Positions 12,127-50,851 of a stretch of 60,608 nt of DNA are shown here, piece after piece. The notes under the pieces are model-generated. The model had not been told where the DNA came from, ran no database searches, and saw only the letters and a program-made list of their open reading frames with translations. Origin of the DNA: Nemertoderma westbladi (Eukaryota; Animalia; Xenacoelomorpha); the NCBI GenBank assembly GCA_032718475.1, contig JAUCBJ010001688.1, positions 1 to 60,608 of the forward strand. The letters run 5' to 3'. A program made the position numbers and the translations under genes. Positions within the stretch are counted from its first letter, which is position 1; each line of letters starts with the position of its first letter.

Positions 12127-12483
12127 GTATGTGTATGTAAATTGTATGTGTACGTATTCTGCACAGTTCCCATAGCATACGGCATGCTACGGGAAATCCC
12201 TAACGTATACCCATAGAATGTGCACTTATTAATATAGTGTTAGGTAGCTACCGGTACCGGCTAATCCGGCCACCACCTGCATAAAACCATTCTGCCAGTT
12301 CTCAACTGTCAGACAGTTGCATGTTGTGGAGATAAGCTGTCTGGCTGTACAGCTGTAGGTATAGAATTATATTCCCTAAATGCCGTGGATTTTCAAAATT
12401 TTATTTTAATCGAATTAACTTTGTAAAGATTGCTTTGAGTTCTCATTAGTATTGGTTCTATCTATTGTGTATCTATCGGTCAA

Positions 12484-12572
12484 GTGGTTCAGTAGCTCAG
12501 TTGGTAGAGCGTTGGAAATTATATGTGTAGTAGGTATCGAGTTCGAATCCTAGTAAGTGCGAATTATTTTTT
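12484..12572 (+). ncRNA. tRNA-like Pol III unit in the 5' LTR (not a canonical tRNA)
   Basis: A-box TAGCTCAGTTGG, D-arm GCTC..GAGC, B-box GTTCGAATCC, T6 run at ~12567-12572; no intact anticodon arm or 3' acceptor strand. Confidence 0.6.
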
Positions 12573-12629
12573 GTGCAGAATTTCAACTCATTTAAATTAA
12601 CCGCTACAAATTAATTGCATTTGTCTGTA

Positions 12630-12916
12630 CCAATAAGGCTGTAGTTATTTGATTGTAACCAATGTCGTGCAAGTTATATATTAGCTGGACCAATAAGCTA
12701 TCTTTAAAACCTTGTTAGAACCCATAGAACAATCGAGAATTTTCTCGATTGATTGCGGCACAAATTTAGTATATAAAGGTGCGATTTCGTTCATTAGTAT
12801 ACTTTATATCTCTCAATCTTATATCTCAATCTTTCTCAGATTATCTTATCAATATTCTGTCGTGCTTAGTTTATTCTCAGATTACATTGTATTATAATTG
12901 TGTCTTCTGTAATAAA
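12630..12916 (+). promoter_or_regulatory. Putative LTR Pol II promoter and polyadenylation signal
   Basis: Three CCAAT boxes (~12630, 12659, 12690), TATATAAA at ~12770, AATAAA at 12911. Confidence 0.55.
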
Positions 12917-15096
12917 GTCAGAATATTCTCTCAGCTTTTCTGTTTTACTATGAATTCACTACGGTGAACAAACTCAGGGACAGGATGGCCGGCTAGAGAT
13001 CGGGCCGCAGCAATGAACGGGAACATCACGGGAATGTAGACGAGAGACAACTCGCAATACCATTTTAGAGTTATTCGCCCATCGCCTGAAAGGTTAGACA
13101 GCGTTCGATCCTTGCTACCTAAGTATAAGACCAAAAGATCAAAAGGTAGACGTAGTGACACGCTGCAAGCCTAAAATTACATCATAGGGACTGTACTGTC
13201 TTGATTCAGGAAAACCCACAGTAGACCTTCACATTCCTACGGGGGAGAGGGAGAGCATAAGCAGATACTAGTACGCAGATAGGACGTGGGCACACCGTTA
13301 CAAGGCATACACATTGGTTAGGGTGCAGCAAACTGTACGCTTAACTCTTGCTAAGTACAGGTGTGTGTGCGACTATTTGCAGTACGACGGTGTCTATTAC
13401 ATCAGAACTTGTAGGCTAGGGGGGTTGCTGTGTTTTCACCTGAATTGGGATTGTACCGTTCAGGCGGTAGGGCAGTTTACACTAGGCGCAAATAAATTGA
13501 GGCTATCAGGGATATACTAACATCTACCGTGTCCCCGCCAACGCCCTAATAGGAAGTTACCCGGACTACCTGGGTGACTAAAATTCTAGATAGGAGCCAG
13601 GATAGCTATTAGTACCCGTACGCCTACAGTAGTAAACTAACACATCTCTTCTTAGTATCAGGGACCTGGTACCTAAAATTGCCGAATTCTGGGCGTAGTA
13701 TTAACCTTATGCCTGAATTTGAGTCCTGGAAATACGCAAGAGGGGAAGGAACCTTATCATTCGTGAGTATTGGACCTACAAGTTATAAAATTAGAATATT
13801 CGTAAAATGCACACCGTACCCAGTAATTATATATGTGAAGGAGCAAAACTGTTTTGACCGTTCAGAATTAACACACGCGCGTTAGAAATTATTTACACCT
13901 CGAAATATATAAAATTAACTTTGTCCGTACTGTGCTTTGCCCGCTAGTTAGACATCTCCAAATCTGCTCTATACCTAGCTAGCGTCCCTTTGCCCAACCA
14001 TATAAATCACACCGCGGCAAAGTATACGAGCCCCTTAGTCCGTCAGTGAGTCAGCCTGATTTTAGGATTCGCTGCGCGGGATTTGTTTTACCGAAGTTTG
14101 TCTGCTCGTAGACTGTTTTCTGCCTCACCGGTTATAAGAGATCGATACTGCAATATATTCGCTTACTTAGGGTTTACTGTTTTGGTGAGAAGGTCGGATT
14201 TATGATTTGATTTACAAACTTTACAGTAGGATATTGCAGGTATTGTTACCGTCTCTTCCGATAGTAGGAATAGGCGTATCTCTTCAATTAGTAGGAATGT
14301 GTTTTACTGAACTACGGTTCGGTAGGACTAAAGTTATTTGAAAATTTTGTATTTTGAGGTAAAAATTTGTATTTGATTAGCTAAGTGCTAATTTTTTGAA
14401 ATAAAATTTGATTTGAACCGCGTGTAAAATATTTTGGAATTGAATACCGGTGTTTAAAAGGGTTTAAATACCATATTGTACCGGTACAAAATTTTCGTAA
14501 AGTAAAACCTAACTCTTTTGTTTTTCAGGATTCAGAACTCATTTCTAGACTGTAACGGGAGCAAGACCGTGTTTAGCAAGTTTGGGAGATAGATAACCCA
14601 ACAACTTTGGTTGGGAAAATCGCGTTTCGTCCGCAACGTTAAAAACGGAAAGGTTCACGTTCGGTTTGTATCTGGGAATCTGTTTTTCTGGAGAATTATT
14701 GGAGTGGGTGAGTTCGAAAGGTTGCATAAATAAGTTAGGCATTACCGTATTAGTTAAAATTATTGTGGGTTCCACTGTCTCAAGTATTTATGCATTCCGT
14801 ATGATTTCTTTGTTCATTGCTGAATTAGTCCGTATTATTGTATTTAATTTACCTTTTGATAACGCATATCGTTATCCGATTTATTTGTTATAAAATTGGC
14901 CGCTAGGCTAATTTTATTATATACTTATTCCGTGACATTTATTTTCTGTAAAATTGGCCGTTTAGGCTAATTTTATCCATCTGCTATAAAATCGGCCGGT
15001 AGGCTAATTTTATATGACTGTAATTAGTACCGTTTTATACAAATACGGTAAACTCGATACTTTGACACTCACTTCACTTGACTTACAACTACCGAA

Positions 15097-18000
15097 ATGA
15101 GTGACAAACAAGACTATACGAAGAATACACAAACCGACTATGACTCGTGTGACGGAGATAAGTCAGCAGCGGAAGAACAACAGGGGAAGACTCGCGAGCC
15201 TACCGAACCTACACCGTGTGCGTCACCAGTACATCCAACGGGAGTACCGGATGCCGTAGTACGAGGCGACGGCAGGACCGAGGACTTTCTAACTGTTCCG
15301 CAACCTAGATATAGGGAAACGGAAATGGTAAGTTCAGCAGGAAGCACAGAAAGTGTGGTTAGAAGCGTCGGTGGATACATGGCGCATATAACCAGGAGCA
15401 TTGGAGAAGGCCAACGCATATTATACGGGTTGACCGCTCCGATGTCTCGATTCGAGTTCTACACCCTCCAGGTTAGAGTACAGAGTAAAGTATATAAGTC
15501 CGTAGATAATCTAGTTGGCCTACAAGATCTAGCCAGACAGAGACAGGACATGGATACTCAACTTAGAATCCTCGAGAAACTAATGATCACTAGAGAGAAA
15601 CTGATTCAGTTTAAGTCGACGATTAGACAGATACAACAGGAACAAGCGGACCAGTTGTTAGGTGAGTCAGTTTCGGACGAATTATTACAGCCCGAGGAAG
15701 AACAGGAACTGTACCGACTGGATGGACAATTAAAACACCTGACGGACCACTTACGCATGTGCGGCAAAGACGTCGGCGATTTGGAAACTTCATTCGCACA
15801 AATCGAATCAGCACCGGGAATACTAAATCAATCATTGGTAAGTATTCGTAGCGAAATCTGCGAGGGAAGTATAGTCACGTCAGAAGTTGCTCGACAACAG
15901 CAACAGTTCTACAGACAGCAACACGAGATGGAAGAACAAGCTCAACTTCTAATGATACAAACAGCAGTAGAGGAAGAGAAAATACGTGTTGCGAATGTAG
16001 CGAGAATCTCTCATCTGCAGGAACAAGCCGAACTCGAAGCGGCCGAAATGGAAAGGTTAGAGTTGGACATTGCCCAACAAGCGGCAGCGGCCGAGTTAGC
16101 GCAACGAACGGCAACAGCCGAGTTAGAGCGACAAACGGCAGCGGCAGCGGCAGCGGCCGAGTTAGAGCGACAAACGGCAACAGCCGAGTTAGAGCGACAA
16201 ACGGCAGCGGCAGCGGCAGCGGCCGAGTTAGAGCGACAAACGGCTGCGGCAGAGTTAGAGCGACAAACGGCTGCGGCAGAGTTAGAGCGACAAAGATTAG
16301 TTTCGGAAGCCAGAGTCGAGATGAAGACACGGCAAATAAAAGCCGAACAAGCGATACGACAAGCAGAGTTCGAGGCGCAACAACAACAATCGGAACAACG
16401 AGAAAAGGAAGTTAAACTTCGTTTCGAACTTGAGAAAAGGGCGAGAGAATTAGCCGAAACCAAGGAAAATCTGGATCTTCTAGCCCGCGATCGATCGATG
16501 AGATCTCGTGACGGACATGATTTGGACCAGTTAGAGGTAAGACATCGCCAAATTCAGGAACGGAAGAAGGAAGGAAGCGTAGGAGCACCCAGACGGGAAC
16601 GACAATTAGTAAAAGACGTGTGTCAACGATTCCCACAGGTAACTCATATGTTTGCACCGGTTACGACTAAGGAACCAGTTTCGATTGCGGGTAGTAGTGA
16701 TATTTCTCCTATCCATGGTGCGACGGAACACAGGTTTGTTATTCCGGACGAGTTTATACCGCCAAGAGCAGCGTCGTCGCCTATTCCGAGAGTCAAGGTA
16801 AGTAACCCACCGATTACAGATCGTAGTAGTTTATTAGTCGGACCTGCACTACTGACGACAAAACAGGTGAGTCCACCTTTGACACCTAAACCCGTTACAC
16901 ACTACGCTTACCCAATGACGTTTCGACCAACAAGGCCTTTGGATTCAAATGCTGTCATTCGCCCACCGTTCAACCAATTTACATCGCAATCTACGACTTC
17001 GAGGAAGACTTGTGAGCCTACCGAACAACGGAGAACAGTGGAGACGCGACCATTCAACCAATTTACATCGCAATCTACGACTTCGGGGAAGACTTGTGAG
17101 CCTACCGAACAACGGAGAACAGTGGAGACGCGACCATTCAATCAGTTTACGTCACAATCTACGACTTCGAGGAAGACTTGTGAGCCTACCGAACAACGGA
17201 GAACAGTGGAGACGCGACCATTCAATCAGTTTACGTCACAATCTACGACTTCGAGGAAGACTTGTGAGCCTACCGAACAACGGAGATCAGTGGACGATGT
17301 TCCGAAACGAGCCGTTAGAATTCGAACGACGCAACGGACGCGAGCACGTCGACCACCATATCCAGATGATAGTAGTACTTCGAGCGAATCGGATTACCCG
17401 AAACGCGAGGTATTTAGAACAGGGGTGGCCGATGAATATAAACGCGAGCGTTCAGACAACTCCTTTGCAGACAATCCTCCACAGAATACACCAATACAGA
17501 AGGCGTTACAACCAACGGACGCAATTAGTACACAACAGTTCGCCGACATTCTGCGACCAGTTGTCAACAAGTTGGCTCAGATCGAGGAGCGTCTGGAGGA
17601 AGTTCAAACCGATAGTTCGAGGAACATCGAATTCGAACACAATAGACACCCGAAGGCACCACAAAGACCGGTACCTTCAAACCCCACATCGTATCAGGGA
17701 AAAGCGCCTAGAAGGGAGAACATCAACCAGGTTACCAACCAAGGACGCGAAACTCTGAACGTTGCCGAGGAGATAGCGAAATTCGCAGCCAGACAGGGAT
17801 TGCCGGTACAACAACCACCGAAGTTCTCCGGTAGCTCAAAACACTGGCATACCTTCGTAGACTATATCGAATCCCAGATCGCCGTGTGCGCCTTTACATC
17901 ACGGGAGAAGTTCAATTACCTGCTCCAAACGTTGTCAGGAGAACCTAAACGTTTGGCGGAGACTTTCGTCGGTGTACCGGACGCTTTCGAACTAGCGTAC

Positions 18001-21000
18001 GATCGTTTAACTTCGATATACGGAGGTACAGTGAGTATGGCCAGGTCAGTAATAGAGGAACTCTGTAAGGGAGGGGCTATCACTAAACCCGTCGACTTAC
18101 TAAAACTAGCTGACGAGATCAAGAACGCTATCACTACCTTAAGATCAATTGGACAACTTGATTACGGGAATACCCCTACAGTTCTATTAAAGATAATAGG
18201 ACGACTCCACCATCGACTTCGTCGGGAGTGGAGGAAGGTCGAATACCAGCGAGAGGAGCGAGGAGGATTCCTAAAATTAGAAGATGTGTACCTTTTAATA
18301 TCCAGGGAGGCGGTAGTAGAAACTCGATCTAACTATACCGACCAGCACATCGTGGCAGAAGGGATCACACTGCCATCCTCCAACCGACAAAAACCCCAGA
18401 CAACATCCACAAAGACGGCCACTTACGCCACACCGACGGAATCACGACAATTCTCAGACGGTAATAGAGTATCTGCGCCCATTGGGACGAAACAGACGAG
18501 ACAGCAACTCAGCACCGACTTCAACGGCTGCCAATACTGCGAACATCTAGGTAAGCGGTATGTTGGTCACAAGTTACGAGGTTGTCGACAATTTCGCGAG
18601 TTGAACTCGGAAGAACGACGGCTGCAGATACGGCCACTGGACTCTTGTTGGCGGTGTACGCGACACGGACACGTCCGTAAGGATTGCCCAAATACCGACA
18701 CTTGTCCATCCTGTGGACGCAACCACGACGGTCTGCTCCACACAGACAGCCACACGCCGACGAAACGCTTCGCCAGGGAACACCCGGAAGCAGCAGCGAG
18801 ATGTGATGCGGCTTACCGAAAACGAGAATCGAAAACGACTCCAACATTCGTGACCCATATTGAGGATTGCTTCTCAGAACAATCCGGATCGTCGGACGAA
18901 GAATCAGAAAACGACGACGAATATTCTAATGGGGACGAACAACCGTCGATCGCCCTTCTAACCACTGACCAACTGAAGGGATTCAGTGTAATCCCGATTA
19001 AGGTTACTGGCACAAAGGGGAGCAAGAGGATCTATGCGATTCTAGATTCAGCCTCATCCCATAGCTACGTGGATGAAAAGATAGCTGACGTCGTAACGGA
19101 TCTCAGACAAGGTAAACACGTCAGTTATACAGTAAGTAGTATGCACGGACAGCGTGCAATACCAGTGACACGAGTTAAGTTGGACTTAGACTCTCTTCTT
19201 CCAAAATCGCAACACAGCGAGAGGGAGAGGTCTTTGTTGCCCTTTAGAGATCTAACCTTTGCGGCCACGAAGGACTTTAGTAACCTACTAGGTCCAGTGC
19301 CGGAACAATCTCTGGAGGACCGTAAGTATTTCAGACACCTTGGTGTACCCGAATGTCCTGTCAATTATAGATCGGTAGCAATGCTGATCGGGACGGACCA
19401 ATTCAACCTACATCAGGTGTGGGAAACCAGACCATCGGCAGTTGTAGCAGGAAACGCATACGCCTGCAGAACGCCGATAGGGTGGTATACTCGAGCGCCT
19501 GTGCGCACACTAGACGTAAGTGACGAGGGAGACGATGTACAGAGTACATATAGTTTATTGACTACAAATTCAATTCATTCCTTTTCACACGACGTGAACC
19601 ATACTACGCTACAGTCGACAAAACATCACAGACGTGTAACTAGTATGATAAGTCACAAGGAGCAGCTAACCCACAAGGTGAGTTTAGAACTTGGGGAGAA
19701 GACGAATCAGCTAGAGATTCCATCGACGACAGATGATAGGCTTGCGAGTCTACCTACCCCAATAACCTCAACAGTGCCCGTCGATATCGATGATGACGCG
19801 TTGAGAAATCATCAGTTGGAACAAGCCGCCTTGGACAAAGAATTAACGGAAAAGACTATCAGGTGGTTAGAACAAGATACAGCTGAACCTGGTAGCTACG
19901 AACCTTGTATGTCGGAACAGGAGAAACAATCTCTGAAGATCATGGAGGATACTATCCGACAGACGGAGGACGGACATTACGAGGTGGGTATGTTATGGCT
20001 TAGCCAAAGTCCTAAACTTATAAACAACTATCCACTGGCTTTAAGACGTCTACACTCAATACGACAACGTCTATTAAAGGACGAGAAAGCCCATCTGCAG
20101 TACAACACTCAGATGGAGACGTATTTGACTGAAGGATACGCTATCCGAATGACTAACCCGGAGCGAGTGACCGACCAGACATACTACCTGCCACATCACT
20201 ATGTGAGACATCCCGACAAACCAGATAAAGTACGCGTAGTCAATGACTGTGCGGCTCTGTTTGAGGGAATGTCCCTCAATAGTGAGTTGATGGATGGACC
20301 GAACATGAATAATTATCTTATGGGGGTGATTATGCGCTTCCGTCAGCGTCAAGTAGCCTTTACTTGCGACGTTGAAGCGATGTTTCACCAAGTAAAAGCG
20401 TTAGAGCGAGACAGAGACAGTTTGCGGTTTCTCTGGTATCCGGAAGGGGACTTAAGTCTACCACCAGCGACTTACCAAATGCAAGTTCGCGTTTTCGGTG
20501 CCAGAGACAGCCCAAATTGTACGATGTACGCCTTGAAGCAAGCCGCTAGAGATCAGAAACATCTGTATGACCCAGAGATAATTAGAATTGTAGAACGTGA
20601 CTTTTACGTTGATGACGGATTACAGAGTTGCGACACAGTAGAACGTGCTACAACAGTAGCACATCAATTACGGGACTGCTTGGCGGGCGGAGGTTTTAAC
20701 CTCACCAAATTCGCCTCAAACAGTGCCGAATTAGTTGACTCATTCGGAACTACTGAGCGTGGAGGTGGTGACATAGACCTAGAGTTCGAACCACTACCGA
20801 CGACTAAGGTGTTGGGGCTCTTTTGGGACCCAAACACAGACAACTTTCGAGTGAAGGTGAGACTGGACAGTCAAGGAAACACACTGACCAAGAGATCATG
20901 CTTGTCAAAATTGAGCCGATTGTTCGATCCGTTAGGATTCATCAGTCCAGTGATACTGCAAGCCCGCATTTATATGCGCAGTATATGGAAAGATGGACTA

Positions 21001-21396
21001 ACATGGGACGAGCCGATCTCATCAGACCAAGTGGACTTATGGAAGACCTGGGAGGCGGAATTATCTTCACTAGAGGATTATTTCATACCCAGGGTTTACT
21101 TTCCATTACAGAGTACATTTCCTGACAACTTGGAACTACACTGTTTTTCTGACGCCAGTGACAACGGTTTTGGTGTGGCAGCGTATTTGCGCAGACAAGT
21201 AGAATCGGACGAGTTCGATGTTTCGCTCATTACTTCCAAGGCTAAGACCATGCCTACTAAGTATATGACGACACCACGAGCCGAGCTACAAGCCGCAACC
21301 CTGTCAACCACCATCGTGAACCTCATACAGACAGAACTACAGTCGAGTTTACAGATATTTTATTGGACTGACGCGACTTGGTTTTATTTTACATAA
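15097..21396 (+). CDS. gag-pol: Bel/Pao Gag-protease-RT-RNase H polyprotein (5' part)
   Basis: Pao gag domain (PPKFSG..W..F, KFNYL...LSGEP), three Zn knuckles (incl. CWRCTRHGHVRKDC, CPSCGRNHDGLLH), protease AILDSAS, RT YYLPHH/DVEAMFHQV/FYVDD, RNase H FSDAS/PRAELQAA/WTD. Confidence 0.97.
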   Translation: MSDKQDYTKNTQTDYDSCDGDKSAAEEQQGKTREPTEPTPCASPVHPTGVPDAVVRGDGRTEDFLTVPQPRYRETEMVSSAGSTESVVRSVGGYMAHITRSIGEGQRILYGLTAPMSRFEFYTLQVRVQSKVYKSVDNLVGLQDLARQRQDMDTQLRILEKLMITREKLIQFKSTIRQIQQEQADQLLGESVSDELLQPEEEQELYRLDGQLKHLTDHLRMCGKDVGDLETSFAQIESAPGILNQSLVSIRSEICEGSIVTSEVARQQQQFYRQQHEMEEQAQLLMIQTAVEEEKIRVANVARISHLQEQAELEAAEMERLELDIAQQAAAAELAQRTATAELERQTAAAAAAAELERQTATAELERQTAAAAAAAELERQTAAAELERQTAAAELERQRLVSEARVEMKTRQIKAEQAIRQAEFEAQQQQSEQREKEVKLRFELEKRARELAETKENLDLLARDRSMRSRDGHDLDQLEVRHRQIQERKKEGSVGAPRRERQLVKDVCQRFPQVTHMFAPVTTKEPVSIAGSSDISPIHGATEHRFVIPDEFIPPRAASSPIPRVKVSNPPITDRSSLLVGPALLTTKQVSPPLTPKPVTHYAYPMTFRPTRPLDSNAVIRPPFNQFTSQSTTSRKTCEPTEQRRTVETRPFNQFTSQSTTSGKTCEPTEQRRTVETRPFNQFTSQSTTSRKTCEPTEQRRTVETRPFNQFTSQSTTSRKTCEPTEQRRSVDDVPKRAVRIRTTQRTRARRPPYPDDSSTSSESDYPKREVFRTGVADEYKRERSDNSFADNPPQNTPIQKALQPTDAISTQQFADILRPVVNKLAQIEERLEEVQTDSSRNIEFEHNRHPKAPQRPVPSNPTSYQGKAPRRENINQVTNQGRETLNVAEEIAKFAARQGLPVQQPPKFSGSSKHWHTFVDYIESQIAVCAFTSREKFNYLLQTLSGEPKRLAETFVGVPDAFELAYDRLTSIYGGTVSMARSVIEELCKGGAITKPVDLLKLADEIKNAITTLRSIGQLDYGNTPTVLLKIIGRLHHRLRREWRKVEYQREERGGFLKLEDVYLLISREAVVETRSNYTDQHIVAEGITLPSSNRQKPQTTSTKTATYATPTESRQFSDGNRVSAPIGTKQTRQQLSTDFNGCQYCEHLGKRYVGHKLRGCRQFRELNSEERRLQIRPLDSCWRCTRHGHVRKDCPNTDTCPSCGRNHDGLLHTDSHTPTKRFAREHPEAAARCDAAYRKRESKTTPTFVTHIEDCFSEQSGSSDEESENDDEYSNGDEQPSIALLTTDQLKGFSVIPIKVTGTKGSKRIYAILDSASSHSYVDEKIADVVTDLRQGKHVSYTVSSMHGQRAIPVTRVKLDLDSLLPKSQHSERERSLLPFRDLTFAATKDFSNLLGPVPEQSLEDRKYFRHLGVPECPVNYRSVAMLIGTDQFNLHQVWETRPSAVVAGNAYACRTPIGWYTRAPVRTLDVSDEGDDVQSTYSLLTTNSIHSFSHDVNHTTLQSTKHHRRVTSMISHKEQLTHKVSLELGEKTNQLEIPSTTDDRLASLPTPITSTVPVDIDDDALRNHQLEQAALDKELTEKTIRWLEQDTAEPGSYEPCMSEQEKQSLKIMEDTIRQTEDGHYEVGMLWLSQSPKLINNYPLALRRLHSIRQRLLKDEKAHLQYNTQMETYLTEGYAIRMTNPERVTDQTYYLPHHYVRHPDKPDKVRVVNDCAALFEGMSLNSELMDGPNMNNYLMGVIMRFRQRQVAFTCDVEAMFHQVKALERDRDSLRFLWYPEGDLSLPPATYQMQVRVFGARDSPNCTMYALKQAARDQKHLYDPEIIRIVERDFYVDDGLQSCDTVERATTVAHQLRDCLAGGGFNLTKFASNSAELVDSFGTTERGGGDIDLEFEPLPTTKVLGLFWDPNTDNFRVKVRLDSQGNTLTKRSCLSKLSRLFDPLGFISPVILQARIYMRSIWKDGLTWDEPISSDQVDLWKTWEAELSSLEDYFIPRVYFPLQSTFPDNLELHCFSDASDNGFGVAAYLRRQVESDEFDVSLITSKAKTMPTKYMTTPRAELQAATLSTTIVNLIQTELQSSLQIFYWTDATWFYFT
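16084..16292 (+). repeat. Coding repeat (AELERQT-A)n in Gag coiled coil
   Basis: About seven copies of GCCGAGTTAGAGCGACAAACGGC. Confidence 0.9.
16963..17295 (+). repeat. 84-bp coding tandem repeat x4 in Gag
   Basis: PFNQFTSQSTTSRKTCEPTEQRRTVETR x4; each unit carries the dispersed hairpin motif. Confidence 0.95.
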
Positions 21397-23948
21397 ACAA
21401 CGACACACTCGAATTCAAGACATTCGTAGCTAACCGTCGCGCAGAGATTCTAGACCGTTCGATAAAAGAGGATTGGCGACATTGTCCAGGACCACAAAAC
21501 CCAGCTGATATTGCGTCGCGAGGAATGATGCCTGAGGAATTCTGTAAACCGGAGAACAAAGAGTTTTGGCAACACGGACCCCAGTTCTTGCAGAAATCGA
21601 CACAAGATTGGCCTCCGTTATACGACAACAAATCCAACACCATTCCTAAGGACGCCGAAATCAAGAAACCAAAAAAGGGGAAGACAAAGAAAAGGACGAC
21701 GGCGACAAAACTCAAGAAAAAACCGAAGGCGAAATGGAAGGATATAACTTCAAAGGTCAAGAGAGGAAGACTTGCGAGCCTTTCTACACCAGACATATCG
21801 CCAGACGGTCAACCAGACGTTTTGACAGACATGTCACAAAATGTTCCACCAGACGTTAGTAACACACTGACAAACAGTAAAGCCGCAGTTTCTCTATTGG
21901 AGCGGCCTTGTATTGACAAACAACTTGATACGTTACCAGGCGTATTGCCAGACACATTACTAGACAGTCGACTAGACACTAGTAATGTATTGACTAACAA
22001 TAAAGCCGCAGTTTCCCTATTGGAGCGGCCTTGTATTGACAAACTACCAATTTTGACGCACTTGAGCAACCATAAGCATGGTGAAACCTCATGTATTGCA
22101 GATGTGGGTAGTACCTACGCTAATGTAAATACAGGTGTTACTTTGCGCTCAAGAGACATACCGAACTTACAACCTGTGGTGAGACCTGGGATTAATGTCG
22201 GCAGAAAATTAAGTTTACCAAAACCCACTGATCCCATAGAGTTCAAACCACCATTAACGATCGACTTACAAAGTACTGACGATCAAGGTAAGAAGACGAA
22301 GAAGGACAAATTACTTGTAGACCCGGACGGATCAACAGTCAACAAGGGAATACTTACCGGCGGACCCGTGGGCCCTTCTAGTAATTCAAAACCTTCCAAA
22401 TTCTCCATTGACTTACCTGATGACGTCACAAATACTTACGTCGACCGTATTGTAAACTTAACAGACTCTTGGTCGAACGCTTGCCGAAAACTAGCGTGGA
22501 TTGTACGTTTTGTACAATACGTTAAAGGCAAACGTGACTTTACACGTCGACTTACATTGGCTGAGATTGACAGGTGTGAGATTAAATTAATTCGCCATTA
22601 CCAACTGCGATATTTCGCGCGCGAATTCACATCTATAAATCAAGGTCAATCAATCAAGTCGTCACCGATACTGAGTTGGAGTCCGATTATTTATAATGGC
22701 TTAATTTGTCATAAATCTCGGCTTCAAAACATTGACTTTAACACAAACTTTAGGTACCCAATAATAATACCGCAACACCACGAACTACAACGTGCAATGA
22801 TACTGGACGCACATTTACATCTGAAACACGCTGGAAGACACCACTGTCTTTCCTACTTACGTACTAGATTTGTATTAATTAGACCCAGTAAAGCATTAAG
22901 TTCAGTGACACGTACGTGTATTATTTGTAAAAAGGTACATTCTAGAATAGGTACCCAAGAAATGAGTGAACTACCACAAGCACGACTTCAAGCATTCAGA
23001 CCACCTTTTACAGAGACTGGAATTGATTGCTTTGGTCCCATACATACGAAACGTGGACGTATACTAGTAAAACGCTGGGGACTGATTTTCACATGTATGT
23101 CCAGTAGGGCAGTTCACATTGAACGTGTGATGGATCTTTCCACCAACGCGTTTATACTAGCACTGCGGCGATTTATCGCTAGACGCGGACTAGTAAAATG
23201 CTTGTACTCAGACCAAGGGACAAACTTTGTTGGTGCTCGGAATGAGATTGCTAGAGCCTTTAAGAAATTAGATCATGATCAAATCTCGAACGAACTGCAA
23301 CCTCACAAGATTGTTTGGAAGTTTAATCCTCCAGATAGTCCTTGGAGAGGCGGAGTCTGGGAGAGATTGATTAGATCTATAAAGACAGCCATGGCAAAAG
23401 TCATTCCAGTAAACCACATACTGACAGACGACCAACTGACAACATTGTTTGTTGAAATCGAGGCAATACTAAATACTAGACCAATAGTATTAGTACCCGA
23501 TGACAAACAATCCCAGTTTGCTTTAACACCGGCACACCTGCTTATGCAGGCACCGACGACATTAACGCCGATTTCTATTCCAATAGAAAGCGATAGTTAC
23601 GGTAGAAAAGCGTGGAAAATCACGCAACTACTGGCTAACAAATTCTGGGAAATATGGCAAAACCATTATTTGCCCTCTATTTCTGCCAGAACAAACTGGT
23701 ATAATAACACCCGCGCATTAAAGCCGGGAGATCACGTGCTGTTGGCAGAAGTGAATCTAAAAAGACGCTTCTGGATAACAGGTGTCATTTTAGCCACACA
23801 TCCATCTATGGATGGAGTGACAAGAACTGTGACGGTACGAACAATTGACGGTCGCACAGTAGACAGACCGACTCAACGTCTCGTACTTCTTGAAGAGACT
23901 CGTAACGAGTCTGGAGACTACAAATCTCCACCTAATACTGGGAAATAA
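21378..23948 (+). CDS. pol: Pol 3' part: end of RNase H, long linker, integrase (separated from upstream ORF by a 1-nt frameshift)
   Basis: FVANR..EI, WRHCPG.QNPAD.ASRG, HHCC (H..HAG...CIIC), DDE (GIDCFG, YSDQGTNF, GVWERLI), Pao C-terminal domain. Confidence 0.95.
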   Translation: MVLFYINNDTLEFKTFVANRRAEILDRSIKEDWRHCPGPQNPADIASRGMMPEEFCKPENKEFWQHGPQFLQKSTQDWPPLYDNKSNTIPKDAEIKKPKKGKTKKRTTATKLKKKPKAKWKDITSKVKRGRLASLSTPDISPDGQPDVLTDMSQNVPPDVSNTLTNSKAAVSLLERPCIDKQLDTLPGVLPDTLLDSRLDTSNVLTNNKAAVSLLERPCIDKLPILTHLSNHKHGETSCIADVGSTYANVNTGVTLRSRDIPNLQPVVRPGINVGRKLSLPKPTDPIEFKPPLTIDLQSTDDQGKKTKKDKLLVDPDGSTVNKGILTGGPVGPSSNSKPSKFSIDLPDDVTNTYVDRIVNLTDSWSNACRKLAWIVRFVQYVKGKRDFTRRLTLAEIDRCEIKLIRHYQLRYFAREFTSINQGQSIKSSPILSWSPIIYNGLICHKSRLQNIDFNTNFRYPIIIPQHHELQRAMILDAHLHLKHAGRHHCLSYLRTRFVLIRPSKALSSVTRTCIICKKVHSRIGTQEMSELPQARLQAFRPPFTETGIDCFGPIHTKRGRILVKRWGLIFTCMSSRAVHIERVMDLSTNAFILALRRFIARRGLVKCLYSDQGTNFVGARNEIARAFKKLDHDQISNELQPHKIVWKFNPPDSPWRGGVWERLIRSIKTAMAKVIPVNHILTDDQLTTLFVEIEAILNTRPIVLVPDDKQSQFALTPAHLLMQAPTTLTPISIPIESDSYGRKAWKITQLLANKFWEIWQNHYLPSISARTNWYNNTRALKPGDHVLLAEVNLKRRFWITGVILATHPSMDGVTRTVTVRTIDGRTVDRPTQRLVLLEETRNESGDYKSPPNTGK

Positions 23949-24605
23949 TTAGGAGTTTACAAATAGATTTCCACGTACCTGTACACCGTAGTAAGGACAG
24001 CGGTAGAATTCCATTGTCTTTATATGTGAACATTGAGGGTAGTACCCTTATGTGTCACATAGGAGCGGGATTTGTAGGTATAAGAAATGGAATTCTACTT
24101 GGAACTCACAATATTGAGACATTTTCGAAATTTTAGACAATCCATTTGGATTTGAAAAATTTTAAAATTTTCTCCAGTGAATAGATTTCAGGGTACAGTC
24201 GGGTGGAACTTAAAATTAGAGAAACAAGAGAGGAAGACTTGCGAGCCTTTCTTAAAATTTTAATTAAATTTTACACGGTCTTGTTTCAATAAGTTACGTC
24301 AAAATAGACTCCCCTATATTTATTACTAATTCTTGACTGCTTATTTTCTGATAATAGTTTGGGATCAAAAGGTGAGTATTTTAGACTCACGGCCAGTTTA
24401 GCCCAAATTCGTTTTTACTTCGGCAAAAATTTTAGATAAGAAGCAGCGTGTCATTAAAGAAACCCTAGATCTTAGGCTATGGGTAGGAGGTTAGAGCGTT
24501 GTCGAAGCCCAAAGGGCAGACGAAACTCTCACGTCTCCTCACAACTAACTACAAACTCTGTTGTATTCCCTCTAGTAGTAATGATTATGTAACTACACCC
24601 TAATT

Positions 24606-25817
24606 ATGGAGAAAGGGATACAAGGAGAGCCGAGATGGGGATATGATATCCAAGAGGAGGCAGCAGCGCCATTCGAAAGATTTGGAGCCAAGGATTACAC
24701 TATATTTGGTATAAAAGAATTATCGGAAAGTACAGCGAAACTCGCGAGAACTAAATATGACTCGAATGTATTAAAGAGAAGGCAAAACGCATTAAACGAA
24801 AGAATCGAAAGTTTGCGCCAAACCTTCAACGAACTTTACCCGTACGATGCTTTGTGTGATACGGGAGACATTAGCGAAGACCCCGATACTGAAATTAGTC
24901 GTTTGTATCATACCATGCAATACCTAAAGGCGCACGAACCTATGCCCGCGGTACGCGATGAATTCGATGGAATGCATCTTTACAGACGAACTCGAGGGGA
25001 CGATAGAGAAACCAAGGAAGCATTTTCAGTTTATAAACTTTATTATCAATGCGGTTCTTGTATGCGCGAACAACGAAATGCGATTCCGATGCGTTTGAAT
25101 AAGGAAAATCCCGAACCGATATTGGCGAGGTGTTCGAATCATCAACAACTACGCTACCAGGAAGGAGGGTATCCTTTATCAAATCCATATCATTCATTTG
25201 CTATGACCGGACCAAAGGCGGGAGAAACTGTCATTTACCCACCTAAGGTTGTTGAACCCGATGTATTTGAACTTACGCTGGACGAGGCGAATCAGTCAAC
25301 CCGCGAAAAGAAAGAAGCTCTTAGCCTATACAGAGCCTACAAGGCTTTCGAGAAAGGTGAGATGGAAGAATGGGGTGGAAGACTCGCGAGCCTACCTTGC
25401 CATTGGACGTCACACGATCAAACTTCAGCTAAGGAGATGACACCGGAAGTTTTCGAGAGCATAAACTTTGCTCAAAACGTTATTCAGAGACTACAGATTG
25501 CATCCCCGGAGAGGCCAAGAGAAATACAACCGTATAGTACTTCAGCTACGAAACCATTGAGTACGACACTCAATTTCCCTATTAGTATACCAGTCCGACA
25601 GGATACGACGTACGAAATACCCATCGTGGATCATCCAGAAATCATTTCAAACTTGGAGTTTCTTCCTGCAGTTGTTTTCAGCGATATGAGTAAGATATAT
25701 GATTTACGTAGACATATTACTCAAAAGGTCGTGAACAACGTTCCACCTCATATCCAAGATTTTAAGGAACTGGATAACTGGAACCGATATAGTAAAGAAG
25801 ATGGACCAAGCTTGTAA
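24606..25817 (+). CDS. Extra ORF3, N-terminal part (unknown; CxxC...CxxH motif)
   Basis: 403-aa ORF overlapping the next ORF; comparison with the 51668 homolog suggests both form one ~1100-aa protein broken by a single extra base near 25812. Confidence 0.7.
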   Translation: MEKGIQGEPRWGYDIQEEAAAPFERFGAKDYTIFGIKELSESTAKLARTKYDSNVLKRRQNALNERIESLRQTFNELYPYDALCDTGDISEDPDTEISRLYHTMQYLKAHEPMPAVRDEFDGMHLYRRTRGDDRETKEAFSVYKLYYQCGSCMREQRNAIPMRLNKENPEPILARCSNHQQLRYQEGGYPLSNPYHSFAMTGPKAGETVIYPPKVVEPDVFELTLDEANQSTREKKEALSLYRAYKAFEKGEMEEWGGRLASLPCHWTSHDQTSAKEMTPEVFESINFAQNVIQRLQIASPERPREIQPYSTSATKPLSTTLNFPISIPVRQDTTYEIPIVDHPEIISNLEFLPAVVFSDMSKIYDLRRHITQKVVNNVPPHIQDFKELDNWNRYSKEDGPSL

Positions 25818-27948
25818 TATTGACGCTAGAATGTTACCGAAGATGGTAAGAAACATGATTTTAGATAAAACTGTTGTAAAGGTTGGATCAGGAGTAAGGG
25901 AGGATTTAATTAGCGACTTCGCCGGCATGACGGACAGCGATGACCGACTACCGACACCATACGTCGACACTCGACCTCTTATTCTGTGGTCTATAGAACA
26001 GGGATATTTTCGTGAGTATAATACTCAGAAGACTGGAACTGGATACATTTCCTACCTGTTATTCAATTGGGATTATAAGGAAGGTAAAAGAAACAAGTAT
26101 ATTGAAACTTATGGAGAAGGTGATACTCCAGATATGAGTGAGTTTGAATCACAACTTAAATGGAGAGGATGCGTGTATTGGGCTATTACGTCACCTCCAA
26201 GAGCGGTCTTACAATATTATTTAGCGATAGAGTCGTCAGTGAATGTTTGCCTAATCGCCGACATTGTGTCTCGGACTCTCAAAAGACATCCACTTTGTCT
26301 CGGAGAAGATCATACGTTCTACATGGAAGGGAGAATTCGTACCGACGTGTTTAGACGATTCCTTGAACCCTTCTACAACTCCGACGCTCAGTGTAATGCC
26401 TTTACTCGAGCAGGATTTAGTATATTTCGAGACGTGTATCTTCGCTGTGCGGGATCTCTTATCGAAAGACCATCTATGTTTACATTGTTACCCTATGAAG
26501 GAGAACGTATTGTGGAAATTACGGATGAATCACGGCAGACGCGCGCGCCTATCGGTCACCTCGGTGATGATTTCAACGTAACTACTACGATCACTGACGA
26601 TCCTTTAGAGGAACTTCTTGAGATCGAAAGGAACCTCCCGAAGAAATCTCAGACGGAGATTCGACAACTTGAAGCAACAGATGCTATAGTTTGCCTACAA
26701 CCTTCAGAAACCTACCAACCCATAGACCCAGATGATTACGATTATAGTATGGGAGGAAGCGCTCGACCGATTGGAGATCTTATATACGAACGAGTGTGGT
26801 ACCCTGCTAATACGATGTGTAGTAAATGTGGCGTCGCTGGACATCATATGGCAAAGTGCAGTGGAAAGCACATTACTACGACTCAGCTAATCTGTGGATG
26901 GTGTGGGGATCAAGGGTCTCATACCTTTTATACTTGCTGGAGATTTATGGCTCAATGTACTTACTGCAATATAAAGGGACATCGAGCATCTGAATGCCAA
27001 CTGAGAGACATACCTTATGAACACGAATCTGTAAAACTCGTGAGGAAGTTATTTGATGAGTGGGAAGATTTGGCCGACGAACATGTATCGGCACAAAGAA
27101 GACGGTTTCCGATGAGAGCGCATCTCGGATTTTGGGCGGTAAATCCTCAAACGATGATGTCGGAAGGATATATCTCCGCTATGCCCCAGTATGACGAACT
27201 TATCGAGGTTGTCGATATTTTGCCCCACGACAGCGGATTTCGAGTGGTGCGCGAGTATCTGTTACAGATTCACCCAGATAACAAAAACACGTGGAATTTT
27301 CAGAAAGTCGTAAATCGTATCACGTATGGTGAATTTGATCGTTTCCGAACCGAAAAGCGGAATAAAGGAGCTTGGTTAACCGTCGCATGGGCGTACCGAG
27401 CCGCGTTTTACCATAAACGTATACGAGCGAGCGTATTCGAGGAAGAGGAGGTCCTAGAGGCGACGAATATACCAGCCACTCCGGTTGCGCCGTCTGCACG
27501 TCACCCTCGGGAGGACGGGCAGGGTAGGATCATACGGGTCCAGAAGGTGGGCCAACAATTGAAGAAAATTATTAATGTGGAAGAACGCAAGGGAGTTGAG
27601 CCGACTATTCGAGTTACTCGGGATACGGTATCACTTCCAAGAGAACCGGTAGGAGGATCGGGACATACACCAGCTGATCAACAGGGGGCGCAAGCTACTC
27701 TTGGGTCTGCGTCGTCCGCCTTTCGCGAGTTCCCAGACGTTCTACCAACTGTAGCGACAACTGATCGGTCACGAGGAATTGGTCGAGGTTTTGGGATGCC
27801 AAATAGACGAATTTGTGAGGAAATAGTCGCACCGTCTCTTAACGTCCCAAGTAAACCAGTGACTCGCCCCATTAGTCTCATATCGCGAGCAAAGTCACCT
27901 GTGCGCAGTTTTCGAGGACGCGGCAGGGCTCGATCTACTAAGCGATAA
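25801..27948 (+). CDS. Extra ORF3, C-terminal part: DnaQ-like (WRN/EXD-type) exonuclease fold, 3 Zn knuckles, basic tail
   Basis: LPKMVRNMILDKTVVKVGSGVREDL...YVDT resembles the WRN_exo ExoII region; YYLAIE is ExoIII-like; CSKCGVAGHHMAKC, CGWCGDQGSHTFYTC, CTYCNIKGHRASEC. Confidence 0.7.
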   Translation: MDQACNIDARMLPKMVRNMILDKTVVKVGSGVREDLISDFAGMTDSDDRLPTPYVDTRPLILWSIEQGYFREYNTQKTGTGYISYLLFNWDYKEGKRNKYIETYGEGDTPDMSEFESQLKWRGCVYWAITSPPRAVLQYYLAIESSVNVCLIADIVSRTLKRHPLCLGEDHTFYMEGRIRTDVFRRFLEPFYNSDAQCNAFTRAGFSIFRDVYLRCAGSLIERPSMFTLLPYEGERIVEITDESRQTRAPIGHLGDDFNVTTTITDDPLEELLEIERNLPKKSQTEIRQLEATDAIVCLQPSETYQPIDPDDYDYSMGGSARPIGDLIYERVWYPANTMCSKCGVAGHHMAKCSGKHITTTQLICGWCGDQGSHTFYTCWRFMAQCTYCNIKGHRASECQLRDIPYEHESVKLVRKLFDEWEDLADEHVSAQRRRFPMRAHLGFWAVNPQTMMSEGYISAMPQYDELIEVVDILPHDSGFRVVREYLLQIHPDNKNTWNFQKVVNRITYGEFDRFRTEKRNKGAWLTVAWAYRAAFYHKRIRASVFEEEEVLEATNIPATPVAPSARHPREDGQGRIIRVQKVGQQLKKIINVEERKGVEPTIRVTRDTVSLPREPVGGSGHTPADQQGAQATLGSASSAFREFPDVLPTVATTDRSRGIGRGFGMPNRRICEEIVAPSLNVPSKPVTRPISLISRAKSPVRSFRGRGRARSTKR

Positions 27949-28730: not shown

Positions 28731-28739
28731 ATGGAGCGG
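28731..28739 (+). promoter_or_regulatory. Short polypurine tract
   Basis: ATGGAGCGG abuts the 3' LTR; the same TTTTC..GGAGCGG precedes the LTR start at 54452. Confidence 0.75.
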
Positions 28740-30670
28740 TATAGAATTATATTCCCTAAATGCCGTGGATTTTCAAAATTTTATTTTATTCGAATTAACT
28801 TTGTAAAGATTGCTTTGAGTTCTCATTAGTATTGGTTCTATCTATTGTGTATCTATCGGTCAAGTGGTTCAGTAGCTCAGTTGGTAGAGCGTTGGAAATT
28901 ATATGTGTAGTAGGTATCGAGTTCGAATCCTAGTAAGTGCGAATTATTTTTTGTGCAGAATTTCAACTCATTTAAATTAACCGCTACAAATTAATTGCAT
29001 TTGTCTGTACCAATAAGGCTGTAGTTATTTGATTGTAACCAATGTCGTGCAAGTTATATATTAGCTGGACCAATAAGCTATCTTTAAAACCTTGTTAGAA
29101 CCCATAGAACAATCGAGAATTTTCTCGATTGATTGCGGCACAAATTTAGTATATAAAGGTGCGATTTCGTTCATTAGTATACTTTATATCTCTCAATCTT
29201 ATATCTCAATCTTTCTCAGATTATCTTATCAATATTCTGTCGTGCTTAGTTTATTCTCAGATTACATTGTATTATAATTGTGTCTTCTGTAATAAAGTCA
29301 GAATATTCTCTCAGCTTTTCTGTTTTACTATGAATTCACTACGGTGAACAAACTCAGGGACAGGATGGCCGGCTAGAGATCGGGCCGCAGCAATGAACGG
29401 GAACATCACGGGAATGTAGACGAGAGACAACTCGCAATACCATTTTAGAGTTATTCGCCCATCGCCTGAAAGGTTAGACAGCGTTCGATCCTTGCTACCT
29501 AAGTATAAGACCAAAAGATCAAAAGGTAGACGTAGTGACACGCTGCAAGCCTAAAATTACATCATAGGGACTGTACTGTCTTGATTCAGGAAAACCCACA
29601 GTAGACCTTCACATTCCTACGGGGGAGAGGGAGAGCATAAGCAGATACTAGTACGCAGATAGGACGTGGGCACACCGGTACAAGGCATACACATTGGTTA
29701 GGGTGCAGCAAACTGTACGCTTAACTCTTGCTAAGTACAGGTGTGTGTGCGACTATTTGCAGTACGACGGTGTCTATTACATCAGAACTTGTAGGCTAGG
29801 GGGGTTGCTGTGTTTTCACCTGAATTGGGATTGTACCGTTCAGGCGGTAGGGCAGTTTACACTAGGCGCAAATAAATTGAGGCTATCAGGGATATACTAA
29901 CATCTACCGTGTCCCCGCCAACGCCCTAATAGGAAGTTACCCGGACTACCTGGGTGACTAAAATTCTAGATAGGAGCCAGGATAGCTATTAGTACCCGTA
30001 CGCCTACAGTAGTAAACTAACACATCTCTTCTTAGTATCAGGGACCTGGTACCTAAAATTGCCGAATTCTGGGCGTAGTATTAACCTTATGCCTGAATTT
30101 GAGTCCTGGAAATACGCAAGAGGGGAAGGAACCTTATCATTCGTGAGTATTGGACCTACAAGTTATAAAATTAGAATATTCGTAAAATGCACACCGTACC
30201 CAGTAATTATATATGTGAAGGAGCAAAACTGTTTTGACCGTTCAGAATTAACACACGCGCGTTAGAAATTATTTACACCTCGAAATATATAAAATTAACT
30301 TTGTCCGTACTGTGCTTTGCCCGCTAGTTAGACATCTCCAAATCTGCTCTATACCTAGCTAGCGTCCCTTTGCCCAACCATATAAATCACACCGCGGCAA
30401 AGTATACGAGCCCCTTAGTCCGTCAGTGAGTCAGCCTGATTTTAGGATTCGCTGCGCGGGATTTGTTTTACCGAAGTTTGTCTGCTCGTAGACTGTTTTC
30501 TGCCTCACCGGTTATAAGAGATCGATACTGCAATATATTCGCTTACTTAGGGTTTACTGTTTTGGTGAGAAGGTCGGATTTATGATTTGATTTACAAACT
30601 TTACAGTAGGATATTGCAGGTATTGTTACCGTCTCTTCCGATAGTAGGAATAGGCGTATCTCTTCAATTA
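28740..30670 (+). repeat. 3' LTR
   Basis: Direct repeat of 12360-14290. Confidence 0.97.
28864..28952 (+). ncRNA. tRNA-like Pol III unit in the 3' LTR
   Basis: Identical to 12484-12572. Confidence 0.6.
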
Positions 30671-30888
30671 GTAGGTACTGTATTGCACTATTGCGTACTG
30701 CAGACTGCAGTAGTACTGTAGTACTGGTACTGAAACTGATGTACTCGTACTGGCCTGGTACCTGGCACTGGCATCAGGCATAGCCATAACATTACTACAG
30801 CAGTACAGTACTAGCCTACAAGAACTGAAGAATAGTTACCCATTGACATTTTGCATTGCTACTTCTCTACTTGGGTTAAGCGGTAGAG

Positions 30889-31092: not shown

Positions 31093-31216
31093 AAGTGCCG
31101 TCTAATTAAATTGATAATAACATATAATCATATAGGCTGATAGCAGTGATAGGTGAACTGCAACAATTCTAACAATATACTGATACGTAACAGTATTAGA
31201 TACCTGTAACTATACG

Positions 31217-37965: not shown

Positions 37966-38407
37966 CTATGTCTAACGGCTATGTACTGTACAGTACAATA
38001 TCATATCATATCAATCATCGATTGAATATTTTGTTATAACTCGGATATTTATCGCATTTTTCTCTCGAGGTTGGATGGAAGAGTGAGTGGTGAGTTGTGA
38101 GGAGTTATAACAGTCCCGAGTTCGAACCCAGTTGAATATTTTGTTATCTGAAAAATTGCGAAATTAAATTTAGTTACTGGTGAAAAATTACGAAATGAAA
38201 AATAGTAGAAGTTACCTGTAGACACCCCTAGCGCCTGTAAAATTTTTATTTTTATTTAACTGATCGGACCGCACTATACTACTCTGTACCGGTACAATTT
38301 GTGCTACTGACATAGGCCTATATGAATGGTGATTTCAGTATTCTGTAAATTCTACAATTATCTAAGTTTAAACTCGCTACGATAACTCCATTAATTCTGT
38401 TCCTATC

Positions 38408-49225: not shown

Positions 49226-50851
49226 CGTAAGTTCCTTAGATCAGGGTGAAGCGTGACGCCGTCCTGGGACACCATAAAATTTAGGACCAAATATCTCAGA
49301 TTCAGACAGGAAAAACCCGGGTCAACCTCTATCTCTTAAAGGTGCGAGCTGATGCTGTTTGTCAGTATGCGCAAGTAAATATACTAGGTGCAAATAGCAC
49401 ACTCTATAATTTGGTGATTTGCCATACTGGTGGTACAGTACTGGTTAGCTCTGTAGGCCTTACAGTTTGACTCACCTGCCTGAGTCCAAAGTAATTGCAC
49501 AGGCAAGAGGCAGCTTTCTGCTACCGGCACAGCACGCAGTACTTGAATAAACTTAATATAAACTCAATAAACTTAATAAACTCAATAAACTTGAATATTT
49601 GGTACTTGAGGACTCAGACAAACCCACGTGGAGTATAACACGCTCAAAACTGGAACCGGCTATATCTCATACCTAAGTTGGGATTATAAGGAGAGTAAGA
49701 GGAGCAAATATACGGACGTATATGGAGAAGGAGATATAGAAGGATATGGAGATAGGATATAGATTCGATTTACATACCAACAGTTGCTATGGATATCGAT
49801 CTTCACCACAGATATATGATCGAAAAACGGGACAGGGGACCAGCAGATGGAGGGGTGGTTGGTGACTTCCTGGAAGGAGTTAGGGTACATCAGGATTTGA
49901 TGCAACTGCTACCTGAGTGACAGTTTATCCAAATCCAGGAACTGATGATTCTGGATAGAAAAGCTGCAAAGAAAAGCATTGACAAAATATCAGTGTTCTC
50001 CCTACGGACACCTGAGTTAGTGTTTGTAAACTCACCGAAGTTGTACTTAACCTGGTTTGTGCGAATTACTCCACCCAGGAACGCAGACCAATCGGGTCAC
50101 TGGTGCTTGGATAGATGGCGACAATAGGATGGTGTAAATTCGACCTATTGTAATTCCCCTTCTAAAATATTTCATTAGAAACATCAATGATACTAATGTT
50201 AATTTTACTGTAAATTCTGCTAAAGTTTCTGCTATGTTTCATCTTGAATTTGGAACTTTGAATGGAACATTCGAAACCGAACACGATATTTTCTGTGTTC
50301 CAAATCTGAAGACATCGTTCATAAAAGCTGGGTTACTACCACCAGGAGTTTAAGGAAGAGAGCAGCTATTACAACATGTCAATTCATTAGGTGATGATAC
50401 GTTATTGAACAGATGCAGTGGCAGCCTGGAGGAACGCAGAGCCGAGAAAAGTTGGCCGTAGCTGCCTGGAATTGTCTCCGTGAGTTCTTTCTAAATAACA
50501 ACATATCCTGTTACAGTACTCCAGCAGTTTTGTATTTCGAATTGCAAGAAGAGGCAACATTAAATCTGTTTAAATCTGTTTCATTAAACCTGGGGGGGGG
50601 GGGGGGGGTGTGTCAAACATCGGGGAAATTTGCTTGACATAATTTATGAACGTCCCCATACGTATCATGGGACAACTATTTCCTCTTTCTTATACATTTA
50701 TTATTGCAGATCTATTCTGTCACTTATTAATTGATATGACGATTTTTGCTACCCAGTATATTGAAATGTAGTGAGTAATTTTTTATGATTTTTTAATTAT
50801 ATTTTTTTTGGCTAATTATATTTGCAGGTGACACAATCTGCAATGCAAGCG

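Follow-up and report, generated by a model that had tools for sequence, protein, structure and literature searches.

The retrotransposon described here carries a spliced third gene, predicted to encode a DEDDy-type 3'-5' exonuclease with three zinc knuckles, in the position after integrase where its Bel/Pao relatives usually have an envelope gene. The element, an 18.3-kb Bel/Pao long terminal repeat (LTR) retrotransposon, lies in a stretch of 60,608 nucleotides (nt) of Nemertoderma westbladi (contig JAUCBJ010001688.1 of assembly GCA_032718475.1, forward strand), the whole of which we analysed and call the window. The third gene (open reading frame 3, ORF3) runs from the ATG at 24606 to the stop at 27948, about 1,114 codons, between the integrase stop at 23948 and the start of the 3' LTR at 28740. 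Its exonuclease domain, its three knuckles and a conserved motif in its tail make up a protein family that Pfam, NCBIfam and PHROGs miss.

Results

A protein family with a predicted exonuclease domain and zinc knuckles

The original prediction described an extra frame of about 1100 codons between integrase and the 3' LTR, bearing the motif LPKMVRNMILDKTVVKVGSGVREDL...VDT and three CCHC-type knuckles. All of this stands (motif at 25834-25908), with the coding sequence of this copy divided between two overlapping open frames, 24585-25817 and 25735-27948. The absence of a transmembrane (TM) helix also held: neither frame has a hydrophobic segment of TM length (best 19-residue Kyte-Doolittle means, 1.07 and 1.38), nor does ORF3 match any fusogen in Pfam, NCBIfam or PHROG, and we therefore rejected an envelope or fusogen identity. 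Pfam recognizes only the knuckles of ORF3, which an acidic linker of 150 residues separates from the exonuclease domain; NCBIfam, PHROGs and PDB sequence searches gave nothing relevant.

Relatives were sought among 1.84 billion representative proteins (expectation value, E, up to 0.001). Three of the five matches, the unnamed ENA singletons P0006, P0008 and P0009, share the exonuclease domain, the knuckles and the tail motif; the remaining two (P0005 and P0007) are matches to gag through the knuckles only and were dropped. When a profile of the three database relatives was run against 1,038 six-frame pieces of the window, it found ORF3 (E 7e-18, a circular match, ORF3 having itself found those relatives), and with it a second gene (51617-54004, E 1e-11) as well as a scrap (49610-49759, E 0.001). 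The second gene, P0010, is a distant member with its catalytic residues in place (ExoI D219/E221, ExoII D320, ExoIII Y428/E432). With it and the window ORF3 the family as kept has five members, four of which are complete; the incomplete one is the ORF3 copy of the window. The five-member alignment has 32 invariant columns, and the window ORF3 piece is linked to P0009 by a pairwise E of 5e-9 and 17 invariant columns in the domain alignment. Basic tails occur in several members. None of the five matches Pfam DNA_pol_A_exo1. A metagenome scan with P0002 gave no match, nor did viral-contig scans with P0009 and P0006; two loci from a metagenome scan with a two-member alignment (L001 and L002) proved to be one prokaryotic locus and a false match. 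Word-index protein searches returned nothing or the query alone though the relatives are present in that collection, and are uninformative on family size.

A DnaQ/RNase H-like DEDDy fold, of the WRN/EXD2/Nibbler/RNase D kind, is predicted for the domain. Family profiles match human EXD2 (E 4e-4 and 5.7e-5; 0.009 with five members), trypanosome RNase D over both of its domains, and Egalitarian; matches to HIV p51 (E 0.13 or worse) were treated as noise. The structural evidence was obtained on the exonuclease region of P0009, for which the best of five AlphaFold models reached a predicted local distance difference test score (pLDDT) of 65 and a predicted template-modelling score of 0.62 (the other four, pLDDT 39-48). 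With this model Foldseek returned EXD2 (E 5.8e-7), then Egalitarian, Nibbler, Pol I, Rrp6, WRN, EXD1 and RNase D. An independent aligner placed Nibbler at the head (Z 13.4, root-mean-square deviation 3.5 over 180 residues), tied within Z 1 with the Pol I exonuclease, diDNases, RNase D, WRN and EXD1, and in a viral library giant-virus 3'-5' exonucleases lead. The window's own piece, modelled from a four-sequence alignment, gave a pLDDT of 35.8 and only helical noise in the fold search; the first strands are missing from that piece, and its model is no evidence against the fold. The DnaQ-like DEDDy nuclease of the WRN/EXD2/Mut-7 kind that had been proposed from the sequence was thus recovered through the relatives, in a comparison that does not settle the subgroup, the donor, or RNA versus DNA as substrate.

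The catalytic residues are kept among members that are only 20-33% identical. The ExoI D-x-E is found in all four complete members, and the ExoII Asp plus a second Asp in five of five. The ExoIII Tyr is likewise invariant, and the acid four residues on is Asp in two members and Glu in three, the window copy included. All four catalytic positions being acidic in the four complete members, the active site is predicted to be intact, and we rejected a family-wide pseudonuclease of the EXD1 or Maelstrom type; the RNA-binding pseudonuclease that the original prediction had considered for this copy is not supported.

There is also a sign of purifying selection on ORF3. ORF3 and the scrap agree at 28 of 35 residues, and third positions account for 18 of the 25 base differences, with a ratio of nonsynonymous to synonymous differences per site (pN/pS) of 0.13 (binomial p 1e-6) on a small sample of 35 codons that is uncorrected for saturation and whose scrap was itself found by similarity. 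Two pol fragments in the window, used as controls, gave 0.07 (233 codons) and 0.34 (53 codons). Neutral evolution, which would have told against the original prediction, is not what this comparison suggests. Variants from the run comparison (40 shown, 676 more not shown) include five sites in ORF3, two synonymous and three nonsynonymous, a tiny sample that says little.

A deletion in the window copy of ORF3

The window was compared with sequencing runs X1, X2, X3 and X5 through their contigs, joints, loose ends and depth. An X3 contig of 1,887 nt aligns to 24665-25776 and 25783-26168 with six differing letters and holds 389 other letters between the two; loose ends stand at the same place in X5 (83 letters, at 25783) and X1 (at 25776). 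This ORF3 copy has lost about 130 codons at the break. The frameshift assumed in the original prediction is actually this loss, and we rejected a simple or programmed frameshift at 25.8 kb since other copies hold about 390 extra letters there.

The loss concerns ExoI. Before KVGS the window ORF3 has only 32 residues left, and in the three database relatives ExoI lies 56, 61 and 61 residues before it. In P0010 about 155 residues, with ExoI inside, separate the anchors that flank the break; the upstream anchor is weak, the last 50 residues of the ORF3 N-terminal part resembling P0010 at E 0.013 (0.035 in a second comparison). When the upstream half of ORF3 was searched with a profile of ExoI alone, nothing matched. 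Because 389 letters are lost and so few residues remain before KVGS, ExoI is missing from this copy, not degenerate as had been supposed. With the ExoI stretch lost, the window copy cannot make the enzyme.

A spliced message and family-wide presence

A joint 14706>24575 in X3 removes an intron that covers gag and pol and brings a leader to within 31 nt of the ORF3 start codon. The intron has GT..AG signals, with the donor GGTGAGT at 14706-14712 and the acceptor after a pyrimidine tract (24566-24578); both had been noted as motifs in the sequence ahead of the joint. Among the joints listed for X1, X2 and X5 there is none at this place. The depth of X3 is nil on the left flank and increases toward the first AATAAA of the 3' LTR, and for these two reasons the run resembles poly(A) RNA; its type label, "DNA?", is a guess, and no run is on record as RNA. 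Should X3 be DNA, the joint would reflect a spliced form that had been copied; splicing occurred either way, as it does for envelope messages. After the splice acceptor, and ahead of the ORF3 start codon, comes a short upstream frame of three codons (24581-24592).

ORF3 belongs to the normal gene set of a multi-copy Pao family. Its bin depth equals that of gag-pol in X1 and X2, the linkage to the Pao family that had been looked for, and the ORF3 contigs of X2 are 7,012 and 10,304 deep against 43-64 for the flank contigs (rough values, as are all run depths, and not usable as copy number). A one-off capture of the gene was rejected. Copies compared with the element reach down to less than 90% identity, with a normal transition excess. 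X5, a low-depth run under a second organism label, has near-identical pieces in 26 of the 30 bins across window 12164-30755, and thus in most of the element.

The Bel/Pao element and a candidate priming signal

The gag-pol domains, their motif order, two LTRs and a short target-site duplication (TSD) confirm the Bel/Pao identity originally assigned. Pfam finds DUF1759 (E 5e-11), Peptidase_A17 (E 7e-42), DUF5641 (E 3e-21) and an H2C2 integrase domain in the polyprotein, and the protease, YVDD, RNase H and DDE motifs follow the Bel/Pao order (gag, protease, reverse transcriptase (RT), RNase H, integrase). Self-comparison gave two direct repeats of 1,938 bp with two mismatches (99.9% identical; 12358-14295 and 28738-30675), of which 1,931 bp are LTR once the polypurine tract GGAGCGG is set as the left limit of the 3' LTR. 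Contigs of X1 and X2 contain the empty-site joint 12354>30671 at flank depth (seven letters fit either side). The insertion, absent from these two samples, is very young.

Bel/Pao elements usually have TG...CA termini and a tRNA primer site, neither being strictly defining. Neither TG...CA termini nor a TGG after the 5' LTR is present here, in one insertion whose boundary is ambiguous within 7 nt. Instead, an 11-mer inside the LTR has its exact reverse complement in the 11 nt that immediately follow the 5' LTR. A complement of this length turned up in 12 of 5,000 LTR sequences shuffled by dinucleotide and at 13 of 14,300 internal positions. The pairing begins at the first base past the LTR boundary, which is fixed independently by the polypurine tract and the TSD. 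In the predicted fold the primer duplex has a pair probability of about 1 if the RNA starts at 13230 and 0.0 if it starts at the TATA-predicted 12794. Some 250 nt downstream of the 11-mer copy in the 3' LTR there is a second AATAAA (29871). The 5-bp TSD is identical to the 5 nt that follow the 5' LTR (14291-14295); that 5-mer occurs 69 times on both strands of 42,287 flank bases, a chance of about 1 in 1,000. In U3 there is a tRNA-like stretch (12478-12570 and 28858-28950) with the look of an A-box and B-box and a T run. ARAGORN and Rfam called no tRNA or RNA family in the LTR, this stretch included.

Other features of the window

Coordinates are collected in Table 1. In-frame tandem repeats occur in gag at 16050-16300 (27/39/66 nt) and 16965-17294 (84 nt), and a long insert between RNase H and integrase contains two further repeat copies spaced by 123 nt (21812-22047). 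Just left of the insertion (11702-12126) is a near-perfect palindrome of 130 bp with a third arm, where a joint in X1 and X2 skips 310 bases.

Downstream of P0010 there is a GGAGCGG tract as in the element, with a TG at 54452 (54445-54453). Within the window no pol or 5' LTR was seen upstream of it; a Crypton-like fragment is there instead. We infer that the P0010 gene is the 3' remnant of another LTR family. The Crypton-like tyrosine-recombinase fragment adjoining it (50853-51660; weak DUF3504/phage integrase matches) has counterparts at 10130-10410 and 870-956. Related Pao pol fragments lie at 173-877 (- strand, 96% amino-acid identity to the element) and 2523-2681 (+ strand, 58%). Remains of other mobile elements, at 31184-33711, 38372-40513 and 46931-48373, are a MULE-like transposase, a long interspersed nuclear element with RVT_1 and a gypsy-like gag-protease.

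Table 1. Features of the Bel/Pao element and of the ORF3 family members in the window
Feature	Position	Strand	Remarks
Left target-site duplication	12355..12359	+	5 bp, same as 30671-30675; from empty-site joint and polypurine tract position
5' LTR	12360..14290	+	1,931 bp; ends TA...TA, not TG...CA
5' LTR signals	TATA 12770; initiator-like near 12794; AATAAA 12912 and 13492	+	
11-mer in LTR, candidate self-primer	13230..13240	+	exact reverse complement of first 11 nt after 5' LTR; second copy 29610-29620
Primer-binding-site position	14291..14301	+	lacks the TGG start expected of a tRNA primer
Intron of subgenomic ORF3 message	14707..24574	+	joint 14706>24575 in X3; cut exact to +/-1
gag-protease-RT-RNase H part of polyprotein	15097..21396	+	three gag Cys motifs 18529-18750; protease LDSAS 19042; RT YVDD 20605
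Rest of pol with integrase (H2C2, DDE, DUF5641)	21372..23948	+	in this copy, frame break near 21,380 between it and first part
ORF3, N-terminal part	24606..25776	+	no family matches; one C-x2-C-x24-C-x2-H motif
ORF3, break	25776..25783	.	about 390 more letters in other copies; matching stretch of complete relatives contains ExoI
ORF3, exonuclease domain, remaining part	25783..26385	+	LP 25834; KVGS 25879; ExoII Asp 25903-25905; ExoIII Y-x3-E 26218-26232
ORF3, three CCHC zinc knuckles	26818..26997	+	Pfam and motifs
ORF3, helical C-terminal motif, family-conserved	27058..27300	+	E-x-[FLNY]-A-D-x6-7-R...G...P; invariant in five of five members
ORF3, low-complexity Arg/Pro-rich tail	27301..27948	+	basic stretch at end
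Short polypurine tract	28733..28739	+	GGAGCGG; immediately 5' of 3' LTR
3' LTR	28740..30670	+	
Right target-site duplication	30671..30675	+	
Exonuclease-domain scrap, related subfamily	49631..49735	+	28/35 residues identical; pN/pS 0.13
Second, distant family member P0010	51617..54373	+	28% identical over 542 columns; knuckles; one internal stop at 54005

Discussion

The architecture of this element has partial precedents. DEDDy ORF3s were described in the Juno and Vesta LTR retrotransposons and the Athena/Terminon elements of bdelloid rotifers (Rodriguez et al. 2017, PMC5408684), where a third ORF after pol, without TM or coiled-coil envelope features, likewise encodes an RNase D-like DEDDy domain. 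Its activity is predicted there too, with roles in RNA 3'-end processing or silencing proposed (PMC5408684). Juno and Vesta differ in having GPY/F integrases, a dUTPase and LTRs of 159-551 bp (PMC5408684), compared with the Bel/Pao pol and 1.9-kb LTRs found here. The bdelloid motif is given as DEED and ours reads DEDD or DEDE, and the sections of that paper covered make no mention of a triple knuckle (PMC5408684). The order of a DEDDy exonuclease followed by CCHC fingers recurs in trypanosome RNase D (TbRND; PDB 7c42/7c45), both parts of which the family profile matches and whose fold aligns at Z 11.3; TbRND, however, is a cellular guide-RNA trimmer with four fingers, and the present proteins have three knuckles and extra N- and C-terminal regions (PMC7797062). 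This similarity is remote and may be convergent. EXD2, WRN, Nibbler (Mut-7), EXD1 and Egalitarian share the fold and the spacing of the LP...KVG.G...D...D motif but are less than 20% identical to the family, and the donor gene cannot be named. Envelope-carrying Bel/Pao elements, such as roo and mosquito BEL elements with a chuvirus-like glycoprotein, also have an extra gene after pol (PMC13524379); in the ORF3 described here neither a signal peptide nor a TM helix nor any likeness to fusogens was found. The view that such an architecture was undescribed therefore falls for LTR elements at large but may hold for Bel/Pao: a literature search whose scope left out Repbase and subscription journals found no Bel/Pao element with a DEDDy ORF3 or with the present knuckle fusion. 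What is new is the Bel/Pao host lineage, the knuckle fusion, the hint of purifying selection, and a primer site that is not of the tRNA type and pairs with the LTR of the element itself.

What might such an enzyme do? Complete copies would make, from the spliced message, an active DEDDy exonuclease predicted to use two-metal catalysis with Asp or Glu as the fourth acid; the knuckles would grip a single-stranded RNA substrate, and the enzyme would chew host silencing RNAs or their precursors. TbRND suggests an RNA substrate: there, cleavage is enhanced by the C-terminal CCHC fingers, which bind the RNA (PMC7797062). The purpose that we tentatively put first, as possible rather than probable, is counter-defence against host RNA silencing, because unrelated elements that replicate in different ways have captured DEDDy genes repeatedly and independently, and because copy number is high. 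Such genes were acquired at least two times by bdelloid LTR elements and are found in Penelope-like Terminons (PMC5408684) and in Dada DNA transposons (PMC3706591); their capture by elements that replicate so differently points to a general benefit.

Several observations weigh against this proposal. Mature piRNAs (PIWI-interacting RNAs) carry protected 3' ends. The basic tails are a hint of a nuclear site of action. The window piece matches neither a Pfam exonuclease nor a PDB sequence, so the fold rests on relatives at the identities given above; of the P0009 models only one in five exceeds a pLDDT of 50, and RNA and DNA exonucleases tie within Z 1 in the fold comparison. The ExoI acids were read in complete relatives, not in complete copies of this Pao family, and Glu for Asp at the fourth acid in three of five members may lower activity. 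Linkage to pol is shown for one family only, P0010 having no pol upstream in the window. In bdelloids, moreover, the presence of ORF3 shows no clear correlation with copy number, and elements with DEDDy genes are still covered by piRNAs (PMC5408684).

The nuclease may instead process the element's own RNA, notably a self-primer, which we consider somewhat unlikely. RNA of the LTR 11-mer would pair with the primer site and be trimmed 3'-to-5' to the end of the duplex, leaving a 3'-OH at the LTR boundary. The lack of a TGG, the exact complement in its place and the second AATAAA downstream of the 3'-LTR copy all fit this idea, but the complement rests on one element and the pairing is predicted from a start at 13230, not from the TATA-predicted one. 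The Tf1 primer, moreover, is cleaved by RNase H and is not known to need such a gene. Enzymes of the RNase D/Nibbler type do trim 3' ends (PMC5408684). Tf1 is known, and Tj1 proposed, to be primed by its own RNA, the primer site being likewise complementary to the LTR of the element rather than to a tRNA; in those elements the complement occupies the 5' end of the mRNA (PMC4600332), whereas in the present one it is found about 440 nt downstream of the start predicted from the TATA box. The further step, that a Bel/Pao lineage swapped tRNA priming for self-priming and that the knuckle-guided exonuclease in the envelope slot is a primer-maturation enzyme trimming LTR-derived RNA, is doubtful. 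So is a role as a proofreader or complementary DNA (cDNA) end-trimmer, packaged through its knuckles, that would remove mismatched or non-templated 3' nucleotides or trim cDNA ends before integration. The Pol I exonuclease, WRN and diDNase are among the tied best fold matches, and the TA..TA termini, with a TSD that repeats the first 5 nt of the primer site, hint that the ends are handled in an unusual way. Against this role, copies diverge to below 90% identity with a normal transition excess, which does not indicate unusual fidelity. We rank proofreading low because the gene is separate from pol, spliced on its own and unfused to RT or integrase, and because giant LTR elements elsewhere are, to our knowledge, not reported to need a proofreader. 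A DEDDy domain in Dada transposases has been proposed to process 3' ends (PMC3706591); the same type of gene, however, occurs in elements of ordinary size (PMC5408684).

The remaining explanations give the protein less to do. With little or no catalytic power, it might act like Egalitarian, EXD1 or Maelstrom as an RNA-binding adaptor or decoy, routing element RNA or jamming a host trimming enzyme. Egalitarian and EXD1 do appear among the profile and fold matches, Glu stands at the fourth acid in three members, and the element transposed recently despite the broken ORF3 of this copy. This is quite unlikely, however: the four acids and the ExoIII Tyr are kept in every complete member across wide divergence, the seemingly degenerate ExoI is a deletion, and a broken copy, whose pol is broken as well, can move in trans. 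That ORF3 is a neutral passenger, a captured host gene fragment without function, is very improbable and largely refuted. Three of the five best-supported ORF3 variant sites listed change a residue, a tiny sample, and variation of the bdelloid ORF3 within a genome looked neutral (PMC5408684). Against neutrality stand the low pN/pS relative to the scrap, the dedicated splice form, and motifs that are the same in two distant members of one window and three elsewhere.

These observations place third genes with a predicted enzyme in the Bel/Pao superfamily as well as in rotifer elements, and they add to the rotifer study a high-copy, recently active family, a splice form and the sign of purifying selection. 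If the nuclease matures a self-primer, it would represent a new step in reverse transcription. If, as we tentatively favour, it degrades silencing RNAs, the element would provide a transposon-encoded nuclease that counters small-RNA defence in an animal.

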